Source: Escherichia coli (GTDB lineage: Bacteria > Pseudomonadota > Gammaproteobacteria > Enterobacterales > Enterobacteriaceae). From it: a stretch of 64,000 nucleotides of DNA. This document shows, piece by piece, positions 3,896 through 52,803 of this stretch. Location of the stretch: NCBI RefSeq assembly GCF_003018115.1, contig NZ_CP027457.1; one strand, written 5' to 3'. The position numbers and the translations under genes were made by a program. The notes below the pieces were generated by a model. That model had not been told where the DNA came from, ran no database searches, and saw only the letters and a program-made list of their open reading frames with translations. How positions within the stretch are numbered: position 1 is the first letter of the stretch; every line of letters begins with the position of its first letter.

Positions 3896-11878
<7,983 letters not shown>

Positions 11879-12191
11879 GCTTACCTTCCCTGAACGAGCT
11901 AACATAAATGCGCCCTTTCTAGCACAGCGAAAAAATGTAAATCCTGATAGCAATATGATTGAAAATTAATAACTTTTCGTTAGGCAGTTTTGGGGGTGAG
12001 TTGCAAGAGGGGAGACTACTGAATAACTCAAGTTTTATAATCGAGGGGAAAATGGTGATGGCGTTCATAGCAAAACGCCCTCAACCATAAAGGTCGAGGG
12101 CGCTTAAGATGTTAAAAACCCGCTATCCGTTAAAAAACAATGTTCAACTAAGGTCAGTGACATTGCGCTAAAAAAGCGAATTTTTAGAATT

Positions 12192-12267
12192 TGGCTCCTC
12201 TGACTGGACTCGAACCAGTGACATACGGATTAACAGTCCGCCGTTCTACCGACTGAACTACAGAGGA
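12192..12267 (-). tRNA. asnT: tRNA-Asn (GTT)
   Basis: Reverse complement reads TCCTCTGTAGTTCAGTCGGTAGAACGGCGGACTGTTAATCCGTATGTCACTGGTTCGAGTCCAGTCAGAGGAGCCA, the canonical E. coli tRNA-Asn with CCA end. Confidence 0.9.
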
Positions 12268-13258: not shown

Positions 13259-13348
13259 GGAGAGATGCCGGAGCGGCTGAACGGACCGGTCTCGAAAACC
13301 GGAGTAGGGGCAACTCTACCGGGGGTTCAAATCCCCCTCTCTCCGCCA
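13259..13348 (+). tRNA. serU: tRNA-Ser (long variable arm; CGA anticodon type)
   Basis: Sequence GGAGAGATGCCGGAGCGGCTGAACGGACCGGTCTCGAAAACCGGAGTAGGGGCAACTCTACCGGGGGTTCAAATCCCCCTCTCTCCGCCA matches E. coli tRNA-Ser. Confidence 0.9.
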
Positions 13349-21562: not shown

Positions 21563-22756
21563 TTAGAACTGGTAGACTAAGCCCACAGCAACGATATCAT
21601 CGGTAGCGATGCCGTTTGCTTCGTAGAAGTCATCGTCGTTGTCCAGCAGGTTGATTTTGTAATCAACATAGGTGGACATGTTTTTGTTGAAGTAGTAGGT
21701 CGCACCAATATCAACGTATTTAACCAGATCTTTATTGGTGTAACGTGGGTCGCCGTTGCCGTCATGAGCCCAACCGCCTAAATCCTTACCTTTAGATTGC
21801 AGGTAAGCGATGGACGGGCGCAGGCCAAAGTCGAACTGATACTGAGCAACAACTTCAAAGTTTTGGGTTTTGTTAGCGATGGCTGATCTTGATTCACCAT
21901 TATCAAACTCGCCACCACCATATGGGGTCATATTGCGAGTTTCAGCGTACATAGCTGCTAAATACACATTATTAGCATCATATTTTGCACCAACAGTCCA
22001 TGCTTCAGCGGTTTCACCACCAGCATTTCTGTTGCTATGGTTACGATCATTTAAACCAACTCCAACCTGACGATCTGAACGATCAGAGTTTGAATATGCA
22101 GCACCCAGACTTAAACCGAAGTCGAAGTCATAGGAAGTGGACATACCGAAACCATCACCATTTTCTTGAGCAATGTCCCGACCCTTACCCTTACCAGAAC
22201 CTTCCTGACCGAATGGACCACCGTTTTCGTTATTACTCTGATATTGCAGAGCAAAGTTCAGGCCATCGACCTGACCAAAGAAGCCATTGTTACGGTAGGT
22301 TGCAACACCATTAGCACGACCGTTCATGAAGTTGTCAGCGCCAGCATAGGTATCGCCACCAAATTCTGGCAGCATATCGGTCCATGCTTCTACGTCATAT
22401 ACGACACCGTAGTTACGACCATAGTCGAAAGTACCATTCTGACCAAAGCCTAAACCTGCAAATGCCAGACGCGTTGCAGTATTACCTTTGTCGCTTTCAG
22501 TACCGTTTGCGCCAATGTTAAATTCCCACTGACCGTAACCAGTGAATTGATCAGCGATCTGAGTTTCACCTTTGAAACCGATACGGGCATATGACATGTC
22601 GCCATCGCTGCCAGAATCATCAGAGAAGTAGTGCAGACCCACTACTTTTCCGTACAAATCCAGTTTATTACCATCTTTATTATAGACTTCAGCCGCATTT
22701 GCTGCGCCAGCAACTAATAACGCCGGGACCAGCATTGCCAGAACTTTTCTTTTCAT
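21563..22756 (-). CDS. yedS: General bacterial porin, OmpC/OmpF family, apparently intact (~397 aa)
   Basis: Signal peptide [21 protein letters not shown], porin N-terminal motif [16 protein letters not shown] and C-terminal ...[18 protein letters not shown] upstream of ATG at 22756. Confidence 0.8.
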
Positions 22757-23321
22757 TATGTATTCCCTTGTGATTATAATCTTCATGAATATATCAATAA
22801 GTGCCGTTATCCAAAAAAAGCACATTTGGATACTATTCTATGAAGTTCATTTTATTTTAAGGATTGCATGTAACAAATGTATTTAAAAGATTTCAAAATG
22901 TTTCTAATCTATTTAATATAATTCAGGATTATGAATTCTGAATATAAACATTCATGAAGATTATAAATGCATATCAATATGTTATGAGTTGAGCGGAAAC
23001 ATAGGGGGTATCAATGATTGTTGCGCCAAACGGCTGGTGTGATCAGGCGCACATTAATGAAGGCATAAAAAAAAGCCGGCATCATGCCGGCCCAAAAAAT
23101 ATAAACAAGACGATAAAAGGCTAATAACGGTAGCATCATGACACAGAATAATAAAAAGGTATAATTGTAATCAGTGCTAATATATTGATTAAATGAATTA
23201 ATAAAGCCGATATCAAAGATAAATAAAATCGCTCAAAACGATTTTTCCTGTATTCACTGCCGTTGCGCAAAATTTATCTATTTGTTCAAAAAATGATTGA
23301 GTCTTGACTGGCTCATCCAAT

Positions 23322-31492: not shown

Positions 31493-31579
31493 AACACATC
31501 AGATTTCCTGGTGTAACGAATTTTTTAAGTGCTTCTTGCTTAAGCAAGTTTCATCCCGACCCCCTCAGGGTCGGGATTT
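31493..31579 (+). ncRNA. dsrA: DsrA small regulatory RNA (Hfq-dependent; acts on rpoS and hns mRNAs)
   Basis: Sequence AACACATCAGATTTCCTGGTGTAACGAATTTTTTAAGTGCTTCTTGCTTAAGCAAGTTTCATCCCGACCCCCTCAGGGTCGGGATTT matches DsrA including its terminal stem-loop and U-tract. Confidence 0.85.
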
Positions 31580-40252: not shown

Positions 40253-43577
<3,325 letters not shown>

Positions 43578-43791
43578 CGCGCACCTCGTGGCTGATTATG
43601 GACGGCGTTATTGGCAAAGTGGAACAAGACTCACTCCCGGGTCAGCAAACTCGAAAAATTGACGCTCCCATTATTTGTGCTTTCGTTTTTTTCTATCCGC
43701 CAATAAACCCGTTTTTTTGTTGCTATTTAGCGCCTTTGTCTTATTGACTTACTGGTAGGCTTTGCTATCAGAAATTATCCAGGAGATGAAA
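43578..43791. promoter_or_regulatory. Divergent fliE / fliF class II flagellar promoter region
   Basis: Intergenic region between divergently oriented fliF and fliE. Assigned from established flagellar regulon architecture; no binding site was mapped by eye. Confidence 0.4.
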
Positions 43792-44106
43792 ATGTCAGCG
43801 ATACAGGGGATTGAAGGGGTTATCAGCCAGTTACAGGCTACGGCGATGAGTGCGCGTGCGCAGGAATCACTGCCGCAACCGACCATTAGTTTTGCCGGGC
43901 AGCTGCACGCCGCTCTCGATCGCATAAGCGATACACAAACAGCCGCCCGCACGCAGGCAGAAAAATTCACTCTCGGTGAACCCGGCGTGGCGTTAAACGA
44001 TGTGATGACCGATATGCAAAAAGCCTCAGTTTCTATGCAAATGGGGATTCAGGTGCGTAATAAGCTGGTGGCGGCGTATCAGGAAGTGATGAGCATGCAG
44101 GTGTAG
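43792..44106 (+). CDS. fliE: Flagellar hook-basal body protein FliE (104 aa)
   Basis: Sequence [29 protein letters not shown]...; start trimmed from the track ORF. Confidence 0.85.
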
Positions 44107-44439
44107 GTTTTGTAACCTGTTGTTGATTACATCCGATCTCACCGCGTGGGGCATGGATGGGGCAAATTCACTCATTTTCTGGTTTAAAATGGATACCTGA
44201 TCCTGAAAGTTTTCTGCCATCCACGATCTGTATACGCGATAACATGTTTTGTCTTCGCTTTGCTCATAGGAAGAGTGAACTCTTTTGTTAGCCTGGGGTT
44301 CCTTCTGATCATTATTGTTCCTGCCTTTATCTCTTGCCACGCCAGAGCCCCCTGGATACACATACACCAGGATGAAAACGGTGAGTTGTGTTCAAACTGT
44401 AGTACAATTCTCTCCAGTATGAACAGGAAAGAATATGCT

Positions 44440-44772
44440 ATGAACCCTTATATTTATCTTGGTGGCGCAATACTTGCAGAGGTCATTGGTACAACCTTAA
44501 TGAAGTTTTCAGAGGGGTTTACACGGTTATGGCCCTCTGTTGGCACAATTATTTGCTATTGTGCATCATTCTGGTTATTAGCTCAGACACTGGCTTATAT
44601 ACCTACAGGGATTGCTTATGCTATCTGGTCAGGAGTCGGTATCGTTCTGATTAGTTTGCTTTCCTGGGGATTTTTTGGTCAACGACTGGACCTGCCAGCC
44701 ATCATAGGCATGATGTTGATTTGTGCCGGTGTGTTAGTCATTAACTTGTTGTCACGAAGTGCACCGCATTAA
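44440..44772 (+). CDS. emrE: SMR-family multidrug efflux transporter (EmrE-like, 110 aa)
   Basis: Sequence MNPYIYLGGAILAEVIGTTLMKFSEGFTRLW... with the conserved membrane-embedded Glu (AEV); near-identical to my recollection of K-12 EmrE. Track ORF is over-extended upstream. Confidence 0.8.
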   Translation: MNPYIYLGGAILAEVIGTTLMKFSEGFTRLWPSVGTIICYCASFWLLAQTLAYIPTGIAYAIWSGVGIVLISLLSWGFFGQRLDLPAIIGMMLICAGVLVINLLSRSAPH

Positions 44773-44940
44773 AAAATAATCATCCTTGAGATAACAGGAA
44801 TCTGATTTGTGCATATTATGGCTAATGTTCGGGGCAACTTTATAATTATGATTGCATTTGCGCGATCATTGCGCCTTTTTGCATAATGAGATCAAGGCAC
44901 ATCAAATAAAATAACGATAGGTCACAACAAAGAGGTTTTT

Positions 44941-45492
44941 ATGAAAAAACTTATCGTTTCAAGTGTATTGGCATTCATAACATTTTCTGCGCAGGCCGCA
45001 GCATTTCAGGTCACTAGTAATGAAATAAAAACAGGAGAGCAACTTACAACGTCTCATGTATTTTCTGGATTTGGGTGTGAGGGGGGTAATACATCGCCCT
45101 CATTAACCTGGTCTGGTGCTCCAGAAGGCACCAAAAGCTTTGCCGTAACTGTGTATGATCCAGATGCGCCTACAGGCAGTGGATGGTGGCACTGGACTGT
45201 TGCTAATATTCCAGCAACGGTAACATATTTGCCCGCTGATGCAGGAAGACGTGATGGTACAAAACTTCCGACTGGTGCTGTCCAAGGCCGAAATGATTTT
45301 GGCTATGCGGGATTTGGTGGAGCATGTCCTCCCAAAGGAGATAAACCCCATCATTACCAGTTTAAAATATGGGCTCTAAAAACTGATAAGATTCCTGTGG
45401 ATTCTAATTCCAGCGGAGCGTTAGTTGGTTATATGCTTAATGCCAATAAAATTGCAACCGCTGAGATAACACCCGTTTATGAGGTAAAGTAG
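44941..45492 (+). CDS. Periplasmic PEBP/RKIP-family protein (YbcL-like, 183 aa)
   Basis: Signal peptide MKKLIVSSVLAFITFSAQA and PEBP core (DPDAP...HHY); resembles the DLP12-encoded YbcL. Confidence 0.75.
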   Translation: MKKLIVSSVLAFITFSAQAAAFQVTSNEIKTGEQLTTSHVFSGFGCEGGNTSPSLTWSGAPEGTKSFAVTVYDPDAPTGSGWWHWTVANIPATVTYLPADAGRRDGTKLPTGAVQGRNDFGYAGFGGACPPKGDKPHHYQFKIWALKTDKIPVDSNSSGALVGYMLNANKIATAEITPVYEVK

Positions 45493-45501
45493 GATAAGAG
45501 T

Positions 45502-46299
45502 ATGCTGGCAAAAGATAGGACTAACCTAAAGATTGAAGAAATACGGATGCATAAACATCATGAGATTCACAGGGTTAAGCCTCTTATGCCAGCTTTATGT
45601 CGTATCCGTCAGGGAAAAAAAGTTATCAATTGGGAGACGCATAGTCTAACTGTTGATAATAATCAGATAATATTATTTCCCTGTGGATATGAATTTTATA
45701 TTGCGAATTACCCAGAAGCAGGTCTTTATCTTGCAGAAATGCTTTATTATCCCATTGATCTAATTGAAAAGTTCCAAAATCTTTATGCGATAACCGATCA
45801 AATTCGTAACACGACAGGTTTCTGCTTACCTCAGAATCCCGAGTTAATATATTGTTGGGAGCAACTAAAAACATCTATTTCCCGAGGCTTCTCAACGCAA
45901 ATTCAGGAACACTTAGCAATGGGCGTTCTACTTTCATTAGGAGCACATCATGTTAATTGTTTACTTTTATCAGATAGTAAACAATCATTAATAAGTCGTT
46001 GTTATAACCTAATGCTATCCGAACCTGGAACAAAATGGACAGCAAACAAGGTAGCGAGATATCTCTACATTTCTGTTTCCACATTGCATCGCCGTCTGGC
46101 AAGCGAGGGAGTAAGTTTTCAAAGTATATTGGACGACGTGAGGTTAAATAATGCGTTGTCTGCTATACAAACGACAGTAAAACCCATCAGCGAGATTGCC
46201 AGAGAAAGTGGTTACAAGTGTCCTTCTCGTTTTACTGAAAGGTTCCATAATCGTTTTAAGATAACACCAAGAGAGCTAAGAAAAGCGTCCAGAGAGTAA
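45502..46299 (+). CDS. AraC/XylS-family transcriptional regulator (YbcM-like, 265 aa)
   Basis: C-terminal AraC-type HTH (...[30 protein letters not shown]); AGGA RBS 9 nt upstream; starts 10 bp after the PEBP gene stop (operon-like). Confidence 0.7.
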
Positions 46300-46800
46300 A
46301 AGTATTTTATGAAGGAGCAACAGCATCGATTTTTATTTTGGAAAATAAATACGGCATACTCAACCTATTGGAGCCTGAACAATCCGGTGACTTCTGCGCT
46401 AATCGGGGACGTTTATAAGCACATATAATTGATACTATCTTCCTCCATCACAATTTCAGAAATGCACGTGTGATTTTTTTGCATCCGGCGTTTGGACTAT
46501 GTGGAGTTCAAGAGTGGGAAAGTTACAAGAGGTTGAGGGGATAATTAAAGGGATGCTTATGACATTAGATATCCGGTTAGGTACGGATATCGTTGTTATT
46601 AAATCTAATTGATACGTTAATTGTTCACTGAGTATTATTAAAAATGGGGCGTTGAAACGCCCCAGAAAATAAAGGGTAATATATAACAGAAGGTTTATAT
46701 AGTCAGAAGCAAGATAGTGCTTCTAAGGAAAGTGGTTTGAGGGCGCCACTTATATGTTGGGGAGGCAAAGCCTCCCACAACATATCTTTGAGTAATCAGA

Positions 46801-47883
46801 TTAGAACTGGTAAACCAATCCTACAGCAACGATATCATCGGTAGCAACGCCAGATGCTTTCGTGAAATCGCTCTTATCAATCAGGTTGATTTTGTAATCA
46901 ACAAAAGTGGACATATTTTTGTTGAAGTAATAGGTTGCACCTACATCAATATATTCAACCAGGTCCTGATCACCCCACGCACCCAAGTCTTTTCCTTTAG
47001 ATTGCAGGTAAGCAACGGACGGACGCAGACCGAAGTCGAACTGATATTGTGCAACTACTTCAAAGTTTTGTGCTTTGTTGGCAATATGGTTATTACCAAA
47101 AACAGTCATGTTCTGGGTTTCAGAATAGGTGGTAGCCAGATAGATGTTGTTCGCATCATATTTCAGACCAGCTGCCCATACTTCAGCATTTTGACCAGAT
47201 GCATTCAGGCTGTTGTTACCGTAGATAACCTGATCATTAGTGCGGTCAGATTTAGCATAGGTTGCACCTACACCGAATCCTTCATACTCATAAGTAGTGG
47301 AGAAACCGAAACCATCACCGTTAGCTTCAGTTACGTCAGTGCGGTCATTTTTACCCTGATACTGAGCAGCAAAGTTCAGACCATCAACCAGACCAAAGAA
47401 GTCGTTGTTACGATAAGTTGCAACACCTGTGGTGCGACCAGTCATGAACACATCTGTTTGGGTCCAGGTATCGCCACCGAATTCTGGCAGAACGTCGGTC
47501 CATGCACCGATATCGTATGCTACACCGTAGTTACGGCCATAATCGATGGAGCCGTAGTCACCGAATTTCAGGCCAGCGAAGGCAAGACGGGTTTTATCTT
47601 TGGAAGAACCTTGAGATTCAGCACGGTTGCCTTTGAATTCATATTCCCACTGACCGAAACCAGTCAGTTGATCGTTGATTTGAGTTTCGCCTTTGAAGCC
47701 CAGACGAACATAAGTTGTGTCGCCATCATCTGCATCGTTAGAAGAGAAGTAGTGCTTAGCATTAACTTTTCCGTACAGATCCAGCTTGTTACTGTCTTTA
47801 TTGTAAATCTCTGCTGCCTGAGCAGACATCGCCATCAGTACTGATGCAGCTACAGCAGAAATTGCCACTGTTAATTTTTTCAT
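46801..47883 (-). CDS. General bacterial porin, OmpC/OmpF family, NmpC/Lc-like (360 aa)
   Basis: Signal peptide [23 protein letters not shown], motif [17 protein letters not shown]-terminal ...[10 protein letters not shown]-terminus matches my recollection of NmpC-type porins. Confidence 0.8.
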
Positions 47884-48394
47884 CGTGAGCCCTTTTATTT
47901 GAACTATTATTTAAAAATGATGTCACTGCACCACAAATATTCATCTAATCAATGAGATTATTTCAAGATGTAAGTTTTAGTTTCTCATTTAAATTGTGAA
48001 GTAGATCCCTATTTTTATCTGAACTGTTTCTATTGCACACAATGCATGACTATTTTGTGAACGAATATAAATTTGGTAGTCAAATTATATTAAAGGTTGT
48101 TATTTATGATTGACTCATAATTTATTTTTTTAATTTAAATAGCCTGAAAATAACTATAGAAATTATTTGTATGATATTTGTTTAGATTTATTAATGTAAT
48201 TTAGGTGGTTTTATTTAATACGCAATATAGCGCCGCTTGATATTAGTTCTATTTTTTTGCGTAAGATAGATGAGACAAAACTGAGACGCATAATGGTTTG
48301 CAAGGCTCTAATACTTTGATGTTGAGGATGTGATGGGGCATGTACGGGCATAGTACAATGATGTCCATGCAGGTGTAGATAATCTCCAGGCTTA

Positions 48395-49063
48395 TCAAAC
48401 AGGTTGAATTAACGCTGCGCCCTGGTTTTTAACATTACCCACCGCGCGCGATACCGGGTGCCAGGAGAACTGGTTTGCTGGAACACAGCCACTGGCCGCG
48501 ATTTCTGAGGCTTCTTTACCGCTAATCTCTTGCCGCATCCATTCCCGCGCAGCTTCTGGCGACAGTACCAGTGGGCGGCGGTCATGAATATCTACCAGAC
48601 CTTGATCTGCCGCAGCAGTGACGATCAAAAATCCTTCGGCTTCGTCACCACGCTCAAATGGTGTGCTACCTATCGCGGCCATAAAAATAGGTTGTCCATC
48701 AGCACGATAGATAAAAAAAGGCTGTTTTTTGTCGCCTTCTTTTTTCCACTCAAACCAGCCATCGGCAAAACAGATTGCCCGACCATGTTGCCAGAGCGGT
48801 TTAAACATGCGACTGGTTGCGGCAGTTTCTACGCGGGCGTTAATCAGCGGCGGTTTATCCCACCATCCCGGAGCATATCCCCAGAAAACCGGATCCAGAT
48901 GAAGGTGTTCATCACGTTCACTGAGCAGAAGAACTTTGGTTCCCGGCGCGACGTTGTATCTGCTAATGGGTTCGGGATCGTAGGGAATATCGCGTTCAAT
49001 ATCTTCCGCGAGAAGCGCAAGGTAATCTTCACGCGTTTGGGATTGGGCAAAGCGTCCACACAT
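48395..49063 (-). CDS. yedK: SOS-response-associated peptidase (abasic-site processing protein), 222 aa
   Basis: N-terminal MCGRF (catalytic Cys2) hallmark of the SRAP family. Confidence 0.85.
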   Translation of the reverse strand: MCGRFAQSQTREDYLALLAEDIERDIPYDPEPISRYNVAPGTKVLLLSERDEHLHLDPVFWGYAPGWWDKPPLINARVETAATSRMFKPLWQHGRAICFADGWFEWKKEGDKKQPFFIYRADGQPIFMAAIGSTPFERGDEAEGFLIVTAAADQGLVDIHDRRPLVLSPEAAREWMRQEISGKEASEIAASGCVPANQFSWHPVSRAVGNVKNQGAALIQPV

Positions 49064-49169
49064 AGAAACCTCCTGAGATCATACTGAAAAGAATAGGAGA
49101 GGGGGCGGGTAAAATCTATGTGTCAGAGGCAACGATGTTCCCGCTGTGGGCCACAGCGGGAATGAGGGA

Positions 49170-49403
49170 TTACTTCTGAATTAAATAACGAATGGTCGGC
49201 CCGTCTTGCTGAATATCCAGCACCGTATAGCCGTGATTACGCGCATCCAGTGGAATATTATTGATCGACTGCGGACAGTCGCTCACCACTTCCAGGATCT
49301 CACCTTTTTTTAATTGCGGCATCGCCTCAAGAGTTGCGACTGCCGGATAAGGGCAGGGTTCACCCACCATATCAAGGCGGTAATCAGGAACGATATTTTT
49401 CAT
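49170..49403 (-). CDS. yedF: TusA-like sulfurtransferase-fold protein (77 aa)
   Basis: CPxP motif (EPCPYP) typical of TusA-like proteins; overlaps the yedE stop. Confidence 0.85.
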   Translation of the reverse strand: MKNIVPDYRLDMVGEPCPYPAVATLEAMPQLKKGEILEVVSDCPQSINNIPLDARNHGYTVLDIQQDGPTIRYLIQK

Positions 49404-50605
49404 GCGATCTCCTTAGCAGTCTGCGGTGCCGCACGGCGGAAGAAGCGTTTTTCCCAGCCGATAATCAACATCAGCGCAGTAAACAACAGCAAATATGTCA
49501 CCAGCAGGCCACCCATCGGGCCAAAGGTTTTCAGCAGGTTTATTTTGTCCCAGTCGGTGGCCAGCGCTGGAGCGAAATCATCCCAGTAATACGCCAGAAT
49601 CGTTGAGCCGATCACATTGCCCAGACCGACCCACCAGTAGTGCACCTGGCCTTCTACCGCGCGGTACATCCAGCCGGTTTCGCAGCCGCCAGCCAGCACG
49701 ATGCCAAAACCAAACAGTAAACCACCAATTACCGCGTTTGGTCCCGCCCACATGATTTTGGGTTCAACGCCTAACTGTACGTAACTGAAGATCCCGATGG
49801 CACTCACCGCCATACCGATAATGATTGCTTTCGCCATATGAGTACGTCCGGTGATCCACATATCGCGGAACGCCGAAGTAAAGCAGATTTGCGCACGTTC
49901 AATCAGTAAACCAAAGCCGACGCCAAACAGCATTGCCAGCCCCAGTTTGGGTTGGTTCATCGCCGTGAGCAGCGCCCAGCCCAGCATGCCGAAAAAGACC
50001 AGCATCCCGAGACGAAAACGACGTCGCGCCTGATCCGGTTTTTGCGTCAGCGGTGAGGCGGCAGAAACTTTCTGCATTTTCACGGGAATACGGAAGATGG
50101 GCAGCAGGGTAAAGCGCGCGCCAAACCATGAACCAATGGCAGTGGCGATGGCAAAGAACCAGGCATGCAGCGAGAACTGAGGAATACCGGTAAAGAACGC
50201 CGCCAGGTTACAGCCCATTGCCAGACGCGCGCCAAAACCGGCGATAATGCCGCCAATGATGGCCTGCATAATGCGGATACGGCTGCGCGGCATTCGCAGT
50301 TTGACATTGTTGGCCCACAGCGCTGCGGCAAAGCAGCCGCCAAACATACCGAGGATCATCATCCCGTCGATGCGGGTTAATGGCGATCCTTCCAGATGGA
50401 TAATTTTAAAGTAACCCCACTCTTCAGCATGGACGCCGAACAGTTGCAGGAGCTGGCCGCCCCAACGGGTAAATTCACCCGTGACAGCCCAAAAGGTGCC
50501 AGTAATGCCAAAATAGTAAGTGGAGAGAATACCCGCCGCGATGACCGCGGGGATGGGCGCCCAGAATTTAATCAACCAGGCGTGTTTGAATTGCTGCCAT
50601 GACAT
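49400..50605 (-). CDS. yedE: YedE/YeeE-family inner-membrane transporter (401 aa)
   Basis: Polytopic membrane protein with duplicated YeeE/YedE domain; paired with yedF. Confidence 0.85.
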   Translation of the reverse strand: MSWQQFKHAWLIKFWAPIPAVIAAGILSTYYFGITGTFWAVTGEFTRWGGQLLQLFGVHAEEWGYFKIIHLEGSPLTRIDGMMILGMFGGCFAAALWANNVKLRMPRSRIRIMQAIIGGIIAGFGARLAMGCNLAAFFTGIPQFSLHAWFFAIATAIGSWFGARFTLLPIFRIPVKMQKVSAASPLTQKPDQARRRFRLGMLVFFGMLGWALLTAMNQPKLGLAMLFGVGFGLLIERAQICFTSAFRDMWITGRTHMAKAIIIGMAVSAIGIFSYVQLGVEPKIMWAGPNAVIGGLLFGFGIVLAGGCETGWMYRAVEGQVHYWWVGLGNVIGSTILAYYWDDFAPALATDWDKINLLKTFGPMGGLLVTYLLLFTALMLIIGWEKRFFRRAAPQTAKEIA

Positions 50606-50791
50606 GAATGTAGCCTCTGAACTCAGAAGGTTTGAAACAAGAGTCGCGAATCATACACCATGCAAATTTATTTTCGGGGTAATAATTCACAAAAATAATA
50701 GTTAGATCAAATTTCTCTCTGAACCTGGAAAGGCTGGCGACATCAGGGCTTTAATGCCACAATCCTCTTTTCTTCTCATGCAGGACGAATG

Positions 50792-51205
50792 ATGAAAAAA
50801 CTCGCAATTGCAGGCGCGCTCATGTTGCTGGCGGGCTGTGCCGAAGTCGAAAACTATAACAATGTCGTGAAAACCCCCGCGCCGGACTGGCTGGCGGGCT
50901 ACTGGCAGACCAAAGGGCCGCAACGTGCGCTGGTCAGCCCGGAAGCGATAGGCAGCCTGATTGTCACTAAAGAGGGCGATACCCTGGATTGCCGTCAGTG
51001 GCAGCGGGTGATTGCTGTGCCGGGCAAGTTGACATTGATGTCTGATGATCTCACTAACGTTACCGTAAAACGTGAGCTGTACGAGGTTGAGCGTGACGGT
51101 AACACCATTGAGTACGATGGTATGACGATGGAGCGTGTGGATCGCCCGACAGCAGAGTGTGCCGCCGCGCTGGATAAAGCGCCGTTACCGACGCCACTGC
51201 CGTAA
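50792..51205 (+). CDS. yedD: Lipoprotein YedD (~137 aa)
   Basis: Lipobox LLAGC near the N-terminus; start could be 50789 or 50792. Confidence 0.75.
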   Translation: MKKLAIAGALMLLAGCAEVENYNNVVKTPAPDWLAGYWQTKGPQRALVSPEAIGSLIVTKEGDTLDCRQWQRVIAVPGKLTLMSDDLTNVTVKRELYEVERDGNTIEYDGMTMERVDRPTAECAAALDKAPLPTPLP

Positions 51206-51238
51206 TGAAATCTCCCCGGCTTGCTGCCGGGGATGAAT

Positions 51239-52726
51239 TTAAATCACCTCTTCGATAACCCACACGCTAACGCTGCCGCCGTTGCAAAAGAAGGTCGCTT
51301 CGCCGTTTTCGTCGGTTACTACACTCTCTTGCCGGTTCCCAAGAAAATCACGCCAGGTTTTATTGCCGTAATTCTCTCCCAGATGAATGGTTTTTTCGCC
51401 ATCATCCCCGTTCGACATGACCACCACGCAGCCGGGATATTCGTCAGTGCCACTGCGGCTAAAGGCAATGCAGTTCGGATGGTCGAAAAATAACGTCTGT
51501 ACACCGTGGGCGAAACGCTGACGGGCGAGAATTAACTCATCAAGCTGTTCGATTATTGGCATATCTATCGGATAGGTTTGCCCGTCACCACCGACATCTT
51601 CGTAATGCGCACCGTAGAGGTCCGGATAGAATACCGAAGGAACGCCATTTTCCCGCAACAAAATTAAGGCGTACGCCAGCGGTTTAAACCACGGTTCGAC
51701 CGGCGCTTCGAGGGCTTGCAACGGTTGGGTGTCATGGTTGGCAACGAGGGTTACGGCGTGAAAAGGATCGGCTTCCACCAGCGTCCCAGTGAAAATCTGC
51801 GTCATGTCGTAGTCGCGTCCCATGCGCGATGCTTCATGGAATTTCATCTGCAGCGGTGCATCGAACAGCATGGTTTTGCCTTCCACCTGATCAATATACG
51901 TTTGCAGTTTATCAACTTCATGCGACCAGTACTCCGCCACAATAAACAGCGGCTTTGGCGCAACTTCCTGTACGTGTTCGATCCACTCTTTATAAAACCA
52001 GGCTGGAATATGTTTGACCGCATCAAGACGAAAACCGTCGCATTGCGTTTGTTCCATCACCCAGCGCGCCCAGTATTTAATCTCTTCCGTCACGGCATGA
52101 TTGCGAAAATCGATATTCTCGCCCATCAGATAATCGAAATTACCTAATTCATCATCAACCTGATCGTTCCAGCCTTCGCCGGTGTAGTCGTTAACAATTT
52201 TAAATATGCCATCTTCATCAGGGTTTTCGATATGGTCGATACCGCTAAAACATTTGAAATCCCAGATAAACTGTGAGTATTGCCCGGCACGGGCGGGGAA
52301 GGTGTAACGCGTCCAGCCTTCGCACTCAATGATTTCTTCATCAATTTGCGTACGGTCGTCAGCATTTACACGCTGCACGCGAATAGCTTCTTTTTCATCC
52401 GCGCCCATTTTGTGGTTGACTACCACGTCCAACAGCACCGCAATGTCATTACGTTTCAGGGCGTCAATGGCGGCCAGCAGTTGTACTTTATCGCCATATT
52501 TAGTAGGGATGCTGCCTTTCTGATCAAACTCACCTAAATCAAATAAATCATAGGAGTCGTAGCCGACCGAATACCCGCCCGATGCGCCTTTATAGGCGGG
52601 CGGCAACCAGACCATATTGATACCAATATCATTAAAACCGTCGGCGCGCTCGGCCAGTTCAGGCCAGAGCTTACCGCCTTCCGGGTAATACCAGTGAAAA
52701 CATTGTAACAGCGTGGGATTACGCAT
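51239..52726 (-). CDS. amyA: Cytoplasmic alpha-amylase (495 aa)
   Basis: GH13 motifs ([15 protein letters not shown]) and no signal peptide. Confidence 0.9.
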
Positions 52727-52803
52727 TCTTCGACTCCATTCAAGGGGAACATTAGAAGCGTAGCCGTAATCGGATTATTCGCGAGCCATCGACTCATTCA
52801 GAT

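Follow-up and report, generated by a model that had tools for sequence, protein, structure and literature searches.

An intact NmpC/Lc-type porin gene as the probable surviving cargo of a decayed lambdoid prophage between fliE and yedK in Escherichia coli

Background

Salmonella OmpD is a major core porin encoded at a non-phage locus and, like the Lc porin of phage PA-2, is reported to be cAMP-CRP-dependent. OmpD is also an sRNA target (PMC3333887), and IpeX, which derives from a phage porin transcript, controls OmpC (PMC12197685; PMC3333887). In uropathogenic E. coli CFT073 both the mRNA and the protein of the porin gene c2348 are reported to be induced at 37 °C relative to 23 °C; in this strain ompC is favoured at 23 °C and both nmpC genes at 37 °C, so that the thermoregulation of OmpC is opposite to that in K-12 (PMC12890032). 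A systematic review counts 'NmpC/c2348' among the outer-membrane porins of UPEC (PMC9609314).

Accessory porins alter the entry of beta-lactams and other small hydrophilic drugs, and alter surface binding by phages, colicins and antibodies. Here we describe such a gene in a 64,000-nucleotide stretch of E. coli DNA, referred to below as the window. The gene is already known: it is an NmpC/Lc-type accessory porin gene and its product is identical to the "nmpC" protein of CFT073. It is no new kind of gene, and the value of the locus is descriptive, as a case in which a phage cargo gene and its regulatory flanks outlive the phage. Our main reading, to which we assign a probability of roughly 0.85, is that the gene encodes a functional NmpC/Lc porin and is the surviving lysogenic-conversion cargo of a decayed DLP12/PhiR34_1-like prophage whose integration site was the 3' end of fliE.

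Results and discussion

An intact porin gene

The porin ORF at 46801-47883 (minus strand) runs from ATG to stop and encodes 360 amino acids. When the sequence was read through, neither an internal stop nor a frameshift, which the sequence-only reading had allowed might have been missed by eye, was found. The whole of the Pfam Porin_1 profile (PF00267, positions 1-337 of 337) is matched by residues 29-360 with 511.8 bits, the solved structures of OmpC, OmpK36, OmpF and PhoE match residues 24-360 (E <= 1e-115), and the identical protein occurs on at least 1000 public contigs. A chance ORF is excluded.

The protein starts with a cleavable Sec signal peptide of 23 residues (mature N-terminus AEIYNKD) that is identical to the sig_peptide annotated for Lc in record J02580. 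The PEFGG motif of the L3 constriction loop is present, as LPEFGGDTW, and the pore charges K16, R42, R82, R132, D113 and E117 (OmpF numbering) are kept at 6 of 6 aligned positions. The equivalent of PhoE K125 is Gly, the same as in OmpF. The C-terminus (...VGLVYQF) ends in the aromatic Phe of the beta-signal for outer-membrane assembly. From these features and the matches to solved structures we infer an exported, trimeric 16-strand barrel that would supplement OmpC and OmpF with a further non-specific channel. A second porin gene, yedS (21563-22756, minus strand, 397 aa, Porin_1 477 bits), is likewise intact, and the window thus holds two genes of the OmpC/OmpF family, as the sequence-only reading had stated.

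A prophage relic between fliE and yedK

That reading had also associated the gene with phages, and the surroundings now make the association stronger than could be seen at the time. The porin gene sits in a lambdoid prophage relic of about 4.3 kb (about 44107-48378) between fliE and yedK. From the fliE side, the features are:

44094-44106, no strand: left 13-bp direct repeat CATGCAGGTGTAG, an att-like left boundary that spans the last codons and stop of fliE
44140-44243, minus: integrase fragment adjoining fliE (intG' of the K-12 'cryptic prophage PR-G'), from K-12 alignment
44440-44772, plus: emrE-like SMR efflux gene, phage cargo (Pfam Multi_Drug_Res, 121.5 bits)
44941-45492, plus: ybcL, PEBP / Raf-kinase-inhibitor-like periplasmic protein, phage cargo (Pfam PBP, 143.7 bits)
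45502-46299, plus: ybcM, AraC-family regulator, convergent with the porin gene (Pfam HTH_18 and HTH_AraC)
46416-46515, plus: ylcH-like remnant that ends at an internal deletion junction (DLP12 homology)
46516-46614, plus: quuD (Q antiterminator) stub, last 99 bp (46516 aligns with DLP12 position 9242; the DLP12 quuD gene runs to 9340)
46609-46638, plus: promoter-like element located at the stop of quuD (TTGATA-18-TATTAT, in agreement with the consensus at 10 of 12 positions)
46640-46800, minus: structured porin 3'UTR of 161 nt, a homologue of the ipeX region found in DLP12 and PA-2
46801-47883, minus: porin coding sequence, NmpC/Lc type (signal peptide, 47815-47883)
47884-48221, minus: AT-rich upstream region, phage-derived (48221 is the limit of homology to DLP12, PhiR34_1 and ETEC-2265)
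47992-48012, minus: homologue of a CAP/CRP site, ATAGGGATCTACTTCACAATT, some 110-130 nt before the porin ATG
48222-48378, no strand: spacer of 157 bp with the right direct repeat at its end (48366-48378), from K-12 alignment

The relic is colinear with DLP12 and PhiR34_1, and its surviving cargo consists of emrE, ybcL, ybcM and the porin gene. Nucleotide identity to both of these is 92% for emrE and 89% for ybcL, which keeps its colinear position, and the ybcM annotation is common to CFT073, MCJCHV-1, K-12 DLP12 and PhiR34_1. Homology to DLP12 extends over 44786-46506 and then jumps, at window position 46516, from DLP12 position 7459 to 9242; the deletion junction falls at the identical position in the comparison with PhiR34_1 and the ETEC-2265 prophage. 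The relic lacks ybcN, ninE, ybcO, rusA, ylcG and most of quuD. The spacing between the quuD stub and the porin stop is nevertheless as in DLP12, ETEC-2265 and PhiR34_1, with the porin gene convergent and just downstream of Q.

The direct repeat CATGCAGGTGTAG is the sole 13-mer common to 43951-44450 and 48151-48450, where the chance expectation for such a 13-mer is about 0.002 (estimated as 500 x 300 / 4^13); over 21 bases the two copies agree at 18. On the fliE side, the K-12 alignment of window positions 43501-44243 stops inside intG. The homologous stretch in strain 6883 is annotated by PGAP as a partial integrase, and 44100-44363 is at least partly matched in 5084 of 5426 genomes. On the yedK side, the point at which K-12 and the window diverge is exactly 48378/48379. 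A search with the spacer (48222-48378) returned only weak matches to Shigella Sf phages (54 bp, 75%, E = 4e-3).

Upstream region and 3'UTR

The G+C content is 24.0% in 47884-48221 and 29.7% in 47884-48394, as against 48.8% for the whole window. The longer interval had been singled out as AT-rich in the sequence-only reading, and it turns out to be mostly the lc/nmpC regulatory region, which is conserved, derives from phage and includes a CAP site. In alignments its proximal part, some 150 nt, is almost invariant across the relic, prophage and phage copies. The element ATAGGGATCTACTTCACAATT falls inside the block conserved among all copies and shares 19 of its 21 bases with the CAP site annotated in J02580, the PA-2 lc record; binding of CRP is predicted from the sequence.

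The 3'UTR is 90.7% identical to the corresponding region of K-12 DLP12 and of PA-2 and 98.8% identical to that of CFT073; relative to K-12 ipeX, about 9% of its positions are changed. It has a folding energy of -56.7 kcal/mol (z = -8.7) and closes with an intrinsic terminator at 46664-46645, which is conserved. An Rfam scan of 45000-49500 gave no match at E <= 1, and because Rfam has no matching family the homology of this IpeX-like UTR was established by alignment with DLP12 and PA-2. Its conservation could reflect an antisense phage late leader and terminator instead of IpeX activity, and the TTGATA-18-TATTAT site, judged by its sequence and its place next to quuD, is probably a relic of the phage late promoter PR' that lies antisense to the 3'UTR.

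The 5' ends of K-12 RybB and MicC were also compared with the porin mRNA from -70 to +120, and their pairing was no better than in shuffled controls. The pairing energies were -16.6 kcal/mol for RybB and -17.1 kcal/mol for MicC, which shuffled mRNAs equalled in 9% and 14% of trials, respectively. A perfect 7-nt complement of the RybB seed, CAGUGGC, is present at porin codons 5-7; the pairing test was not significant.

Selection, distribution and expression

Codon differences between the window gene and the PhiR34_1 porin gene comprise 33 synonymous and 3 non-synonymous ones, which indicates purifying selection on the coding sequence. The gene is found at the fliE-yedK junction in 454 of 5,426 complete E. 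coli genomes, whereas the left junction of the relic was counted in 2620 and the promoter-side junction in 1497 of the 5426. Relics from which the porin has been deleted are commoner than relics that have it, and at least two different deletions removed it in other lineages, one of 46611-47842 and one of 46621-48626, the latter linked to IS200/IS605. Since most relic-bearing genomes have lost the porin, it must be dispensable in many lineages.

Is the gene then a silent or decaying relic, with an ORF that is still open but switched off (for instance by H-NS acting on the AT-rich upstream region) and that contributes nothing, like the quiescent nmpC of laboratory strains? The quiescence of K-12 nmpC does indicate that homologues can be silent. 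The 24% G+C of the upstream region fits such a view, as do the multiple porin deletions elsewhere and the retention of the porin in only 454 genomes, whereas the promoter-side junction persists in at least 1497, but the excess of synonymous over non-synonymous differences from the phage copy does not, nor does a protein identical to that of CFT073 despite flanks that are 2-7% diverged. The induction of c2348 mRNA and protein at 37 °C (PMC12890032) and the inclusion of NmpC/c2348 among UPEC outer-membrane porins (PMC9609314) also speak against silence. We consider a silent gene improbable. A pseudogene reading was rejected, the ORF being intact and under purifying selection.

The published data concern c2348, which we infer to be C_RS11125 and the CFT073 allele of the window gene. 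The mapping was made by locus-tag arithmetic (tcpC = c2398 = C_RS11365, 48 RefSeq loci away), and C_RS11125 is the sole porin gene nearby. For what is thus probably the same allele, the view in the sequence-only reading that expression is unknown is outdated (PMC12890032; PMC9609314). Well-studied extraintestinal pathogenic strains (CFT073, ABU 83972 and MCJCHV-1) carry the gene, which, if the mapping is right, is reported to rise at body temperature.

If the porin is functional prophage cargo, as we favour, a role can be proposed by analogy. Its transcription would be cAMP-CRP-dependent and, in line with the published behaviour of CFT073 c2348, favoured at 37 °C, where release of the AT-rich region from H-NS could account for the temperature effect. 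The 3'UTR, transcribed together with the porin, would act like IpeX, with the result that OmpC and OmpF are lowered, and such a swap of major porins would affect surface antigens, the permeability to small molecules and the receptors that phages and colicins use. The relic might in that event be a domesticated, temperature-triggered porin switch, in which the porin goes up at 37 °C and its IpeX-like 3'UTR represses OmpC and OmpF; we put this forward tentatively and think it rather unlikely. In CFT073-like strains the switch may involve induction of a prophage-borne second nmpC copy as well. Were the switch real, it could explain why the thermoregulation of OmpC in CFT073 is opposite to that in K-12, and a 4-kb phage remnant would be reprogramming major-porin make-up upon entry into a warm-blooded host. 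A full-text literature search for 'ipeX' did not have PMC12890032 among its matches, and the locus offers a testable link between an IpeX-like 3'UTR and this unusual OmpC thermoregulation.

Relationship to other porins and alternative origins

The protein is 100% identical to CFT073 WP_000737290.1 and 99.2% identical to the porins that phages PhiR34_1 and PhiR68_2 encode. Identity is 91.4% to a reconstructed K-12 NmpC and 90.1% to Lc of PA-2, then drops to about 80-81% for Salmonella OmpD and to 63.9%, 61.7% and 63.9% for K-12 OmpC, OmpF and PhoE, respectively (the range is 62-68% once OmpN is included). The sequence-only reading had called the gene NmpC/Lc-like and had suggested placement in the porin tree as a check. 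A bootstrap tree of Kimura distances bears the assignment out: the protein falls in an NmpC/Lc/OmpD clade and not with OmpC, OmpF and PhoE (100% bootstrap), and the three nested groups that contain it have 100%, 99% and 100% support. On these comparisons, NmpC/Lc-type general diffusion porin is the correct family for the gene at 46801-47883.

Membership of this clade raises the question of whether the gene could have reached E. coli by vertical descent, as an orthologue of Salmonella/Citrobacter OmpD with no phage origin. The identity of about 80-81% would allow this, and several phage records as well as NCBI call such proteins 'OmpD'. The Escherichia NmpC/Lc group is, however, split from the OmpD sequences with 99% bootstrap, the flanks are lambdoid (the quuD stub, the ipeX-like UTR and the lc-type upstream region), and the island around the gene is att-bounded and has an integrase stub. 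Vertical descent from a common OmpD gene is therefore highly improbable.

Annotation points in yet another direction. RefSeq labels the protein 'porin OmpC', PGAP gives the name ompC in every genome examined, and the NCBIfam 'porin OmpC' model is passed with 520.8 bits against a cut-off of 484, this being a subfamily model and not an equivalog. A canonical core porin gene (ompC, ompF or phoE) put here by misassembly or relocation, which the sequence-only reading had itself raised, is nevertheless refuted. The identities to K-12 OmpC, OmpF and PhoE are only 61.7-63.9%, the scores lie below the cut-offs of the NCBIfam equivalogs for PhoE (508 as against 599) and OmpF (483 as against 583), the clades are separated with 100% bootstrap, and the same fliE-yedK context in 454 complete genomes means that the placement is no misjoin. 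We give this explanation next to no chance.

Equally negligible is the idea of a complete inducible prophage in which the porin gene still serves in lysogenic conversion, as lc does in PA-2. The nearest protein relatives are indeed in inducible phages and the Q-side flank and regulatory regions are of phage type, but gene content refutes the idea: the island is only about 4.3 kb, its quuD is cut to 99 bp, and the stretch from the att-like repeat at 44094 to that at 48366 has no genes for a repressor, replication, lysis, heads or tails. The lysis cassette (S/R/Rz) is absent beyond the porin upstream region, where phage homology stops about 250 bp before the holin gene and yedK comes next; such a loss is expected of a relic and has no bearing on what the protein is. 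In the one genome inspected for a complete prophage at the fliE site, that of strain 6883, which has an 'integrase' annotation next to fliE, there was no intact phage but a partial integrase stub and then yedK directly.

Comparison with known systems

Read as the remaining cargo of a decayed prophage, the locus can be set beside five described systems. Salmonella OmpD belongs to the same clade and is, like the window porin, a general porin, but forms a separate subclade. PA-2 Lc shares the identical 23-residue signal peptide, the CAP site (19 of 21 bases) and a homologous downstream UTR. PA-2 differs in being a live phage, in which the upstream region is followed by lysis genes. It also has an additional, distal CAP site, located past the point where homology breaks off (48221) and missing from the window.

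K-12 DLP12 (qsr') has in common with the window the signal peptide, the promoter-proximal block, the terminator and the neighbours emrE, ybcL, ybcM and quuD. The K-12 nmpC gene is interrupted by IS5 and lies in a 21-kb cryptic prophage (DLP12, 564755-586056), whereas the window copy is intact and sits in a relic at fliE that, unlike DLP12, is without ybcK and ybcN-quuD. The window porin is 5 residues shorter than K-12 NmpC, and the main differences between the two are at residues 181-190, 216-232 and 263-267, as seen in the Lc alignment.

The inducible lambdoid phages PhiR34_1 and PhiR68_2, in which the porin is named 'OmpD', are closer still, with 3 substitutions in the porin. The PhiR34_1 gene order Ren-SMR-YbcK-YbcL-YbcM-...-Q-porin-S matches that of the relic, although PhiR34_1 is a complete phage. 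Its nucleotide identity to the window is 96.6% in the coding sequence and about 85% in the flanks, and the window porin is therefore no recent copy of that of PhiR34_1.

The nearest match is CFT073, in which the order yedK-porin-ybcM-ybcL-emrE-fliE is identical and the porin gene has only 2 nucleotide differences from the window gene, both synonymous. The right att-like repeat matches at 13 of 13 positions in the window and at 12 of 13 in CFT073. The flanking DNA is 2-7% diverged from that of CFT073, indicating that the host strain of the window belongs to a different lineage.

An intact porin gene of the NmpC/Lc group

The sequence-only reading had described an accessory general porin gene of NmpC/Lc-like type at 46801-47883, and this held up. 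The ORF at 46801-47883 (-) runs unbroken from ATG to TAA over 360 codons, and its product matches the whole Pfam Porin_1 profile (511.8 bits). The protein has a signal peptide of 23 residues, the same as that annotated on Lc, a PEFGG loop-3 motif and a C-terminal ...YQF. Solved OmpC, OmpK36, OmpF and PhoE match residues 24-360 with E <= 1e-115. In the alignment all six of the OmpF-type charges that we take to line the pore (K16, R42, R82, R132, D113 and E117) are kept, and where PhoE has Lys125 the porin, like OmpF, has Gly.

Protein identity to the window porin
CFT073 C_RS11125 (WP_000737290.1): 100%
Porin of inducible lambdoid phages PhiR34_1 / PhiR68_2: 99.2%
K-12 NmpC, IS5 taken out: 91.4%
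Lc of phage PA-2: 90.1%
OmpD of Salmonella and Citrobacter: about 79-81%
OmpN: 68.0%
YedS encoded in the same window: 64.1%
OmpC: 63.9%
PhoE: 63.9%
OmpF: 61.7%

The alignment to NmpC, Lc, OmpD, OmpC and OmpF that had been suggested as a check thus places the porin with NmpC and Lc. A neighbour-joining tree (300 bootstrap replicates) gave 100% support to the NmpC/Lc/OmpD clade, 99% to the Escherichia NmpC/Lc group and 100% to the group of 360-aa alleles that includes the window porin. On all sequence features that can be tested, then, it belongs to the NmpC/Lc subfamily. Its differences from Lc and NmpC bunch in three segments (residues 181-190, 216-232 and 263-267), presumably surface loops L4-L6 if OmpF topology applies.

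Could it be an ompC, ompF or phoE orthologue? RefSeq labels it 'porin OmpC', and it passes the NCBIfam 'porin OmpC' subfamily model (520.8 vs a cut-off of 484). Despite that label we reject this assignment, as identities to the three are 61.7-63.9% and the NCBIfam equivalog cut-offs for PhoE (508 vs 599) and OmpF (483 vs 583) are failed. Nor is the porin new in kind: an identical protein is already annotated at the same locus in CFT073. Public records have the exact sequence on at least 1000 contigs, where it is variously called 'porin OmpC', 'porin OmpD' or 'outer membrane porin protein LC'.

The porin lies in a prophage relic

The window was compared with K-12, CFT073, an ETEC prophage and phage PhiR34_1. 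Homology to the K-12 core runs through fliE up to 44243 and returns from 48379, ahead of yedK. Between these points lie three blocks that are 85-92% identical to, and colinear with, both PhiR34_1 and DLP12, the K-12 cryptic prophage that carries nmpC. The features are:

44140-44243 (-), integrase stub (counterpart in strain 6883, locus L017, at 12041-12163)
44364-44774, block with emrE
44786-46506, block with ybcL, ybcM and most of ylcH
46516-48221, block with the final 99 bp of quuD, the porin and its 3'UTR, and about 340 bp upstream of the porin

Set against the gene order of PhiR34_1 (Ren-SMR-YbcK-YbcL-YbcM-YbcN-NinE-YbcO-RusA-YlcG-Q-porin(opposite strand)-S-R-Rz), these blocks form a relic without ybcK, without ybcN to most of Q, and without the holin onwards. 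Membership of a live prophage is rejected on the same grounds.

The intG fragment beside fliE is common to the window and K-12, where it is annotated as 'cryptic prophage PR-G'; the homologous stretch in strain 6883 is labelled a partial integrase by PGAP. A 13-bp exact direct repeat, CATGCAGGTGTAG, has its left copy on the fliE stop (44094-44106) and its right copy at 48366-48378, and stretches to 18/21 bases. The exact point at which the window parts from K-12 is 48378/48379, and the right copy in CFT073 differs in having 12/13 bases. We infer that the repeat arose by att-type duplication of the 3' end of fliE; together with the integrase fragment it makes the boundaries look phage-derived.

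Distribution and loss

Matches to the island were surveyed in 5,426 complete E. coli genomes.

Genomes with a match, by segment
At least part of 44100-44363 beside fliE, integrase stub included: 5084/5426
Left island junction, at least 80% of 44100-44363: 2620/5426
Porin upstream region/yedK junction, at least 80% of 47900-48500: 1497/5426
ybcM/porin 3' end junction, at least 80% of 46301-46900: 454/5426 (8.4%)

Carriers of the porin at the fliE-yedK locus include CFT073, ABU 83972, MCJCHV-1 and JCM 20135; this copy is far rarer than the NmpC-type genes of ordinary DLP12-like prophages. Elsewhere the porin has been lost through at least two different deletions. HUM3355 has 30 bp in place of 46611-47842, keeping the promoter and the first 41 nt, and an IS200/IS605 element (tnpA/tnpB) adjoins its yedK. 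In EC958 (ST131) an IS200/IS605 element abuts 46620, 46621-48626 is gone and yedK is truncated; the two structures are independent. The strain 6883 locus holds fliE, the integrase stub and yedK only, whereas K-12 has yedL and yedN instead. That 5084 of 5426 genomes have a match beside fliE, among them genomes otherwise empty between fliE and yedK, suggests that an ancient phage integration at the 3' end of fliE has since decayed differently in different lineages.

The best match of 39001-64000 (25 kb) in the same 5,426 RefSeq genomes reaches only about 98% identity, which places the source strain in a lineage without a close complete-genome relative in this set.

Constraint on the porin

The coding sequence differs from that of PhiR34_1 at 37 nucleotides (33 codons synonymous, 3 non-synonymous), and in the flanks identity is only about 85%. 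This pattern indicates that the protein is under purifying selection and rules out a recent copy. From CFT073 there are just two differences, both synonymous. Over 46250-48000 the window shares 99.2-100% identity with CFT073 and MCJCHV-1, whereas the flanks (44000-46250 and 48000-52750), which hold island genes and the core genes yedK, yedE and amyA, are only 92-98% identical; for the core genes nearby the difference amounts to 2-7%. Either unusually strong constraint, synonymous sites included, or recent recombination would account for this low divergence.

Upstream region and expression

The upstream region is AT-rich, as had been noted: G+C is 29.7% at 47884-48394 and 24.0% at 47884-48221, vs 48.8% for the whole window. 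Ahead of the ATG lies a block of about 150 nt that hardly varies between the window and CFT073, PhiR34_1, the ETEC prophage or DLP12. Inside this block, at 48012-47992, is ATAGGGATCTACTTCACAATT, a homologue (19/21 bases) of the annotated CAP site of PA-2 lc. The second, distal CAP site of PA-2 is past the homology breakpoint and is missing from the window.

Expression had been called unknown, but this is out of date if the CFT073 gene c2348 ('nmpC precursor') is the counterpart, since its mRNA and protein are favoured at 37 °C over 23 °C, the opposite of ompC (PMC12890032). The match to C_RS11125 comes from locus spacing: tcpC is c2398, at about 2,202,778 in CFT073 (PMC8147327), and is C_RS11365; C_RS11125 precedes it by 48 RefSeq loci, and the sole other nearby porin, the yedS-like C_RS11285, is 16 loci ahead of it. 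Outer-membrane protein genes including c2348 are repressed by antimicrobial stress (PMC12188735), and c2348 is among the transposon insertions that change type 1 fimbriae expression (PMC6727828). A list of UPEC porins includes 'NmpC/c2348', and one proteomic study found NmpC in 89% of UPEC isolates (PMC9609314).

The 3'UTR and an antisense promoter-like site

Counted from the stop codon and including the T-run of the terminator, the 3'UTR is 161 nt long. It shares 90.7% identity with DLP12 and PA-2 and 98.8% with CFT073; going by this sequence it is the region known as ipeX. A search of Rfam gave no match to it. Its predicted fold is a hairpin series of -56.7 kcal/mol (mean of shuffles -27.6 kcal/mol, z = -8.7), closed by a conserved intrinsic terminator at 46664-46645.

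A promoter-like sigma-70 site (TTGATA-18-TATTAT, 10/12) at 46609-46638 (+), which coincides with the stop of the 99-bp quuD stub, is directed antisense into the 3'UTR and coding sequence. The lambdoid late promoter PR' is expected at the end of the Q gene, and the site is probably a relic of it. Without Q, its transcripts would hit a strong hairpin at about 46752-46785. Because this site lies opposite the UTR, conservation of the UTR could partly reflect a phage late leader.

yedS and other genes of the window

The second porin noted in the window is indeed there: yedS, at 21563-22756 (-), encodes 397 aa (Porin_1, 477 bits) and is intact, whereas K-12 yedS is an annotated pseudogene. Just upstream is the gene for RseX (23068-23157, -; Rfam, 98 bits), an RNA reported to repress OmpC. 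With the IpeX-like UTR at the nmpC-type gene, both accessory porin loci thus adjoin an RNA reported to have this effect.

The DsrA sRNA gene at 31493-31579 (+; Rfam, 102.5 bits) is ordinary, and by gene order its position appears to fit the K-12 rcsA-dsrB-yodD region. A very large ORF (3896-11953, -; 2685 aa) beside two tRNA genes (12195-12267, -; 13259-13345, +) may be a yeeJ-type adhesin, going by K-12 order near zinT, yodB and mtfA.

Proposed working of the porin

The relic has left stranded an intact, constrained NmpC/Lc-type porin gene with a phage-type promoter region, a CAP site and an IpeX-like 3'UTR. The porin would be exported and would form trimers that serve as general diffusion channels. 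Its transcription would depend on cAMP-CRP and, by analogy with CFT073, be favoured at 37 °C; we speculate that release of H-NS from the 24% G+C region might contribute. The co-transcribed 3'UTR would lower OmpC and OmpF, an effect that IpeX has in K-12 and in PA-2 lysogens. The major porins would in effect be swapped, and this would bear on phage and colicin receptors, antigenicity and permeability. That porin and UTR make up a body-temperature porin switch, explaining the inverted thermoregulation of OmpC in CFT073, is a tentative proposal to which we give about one chance in four.
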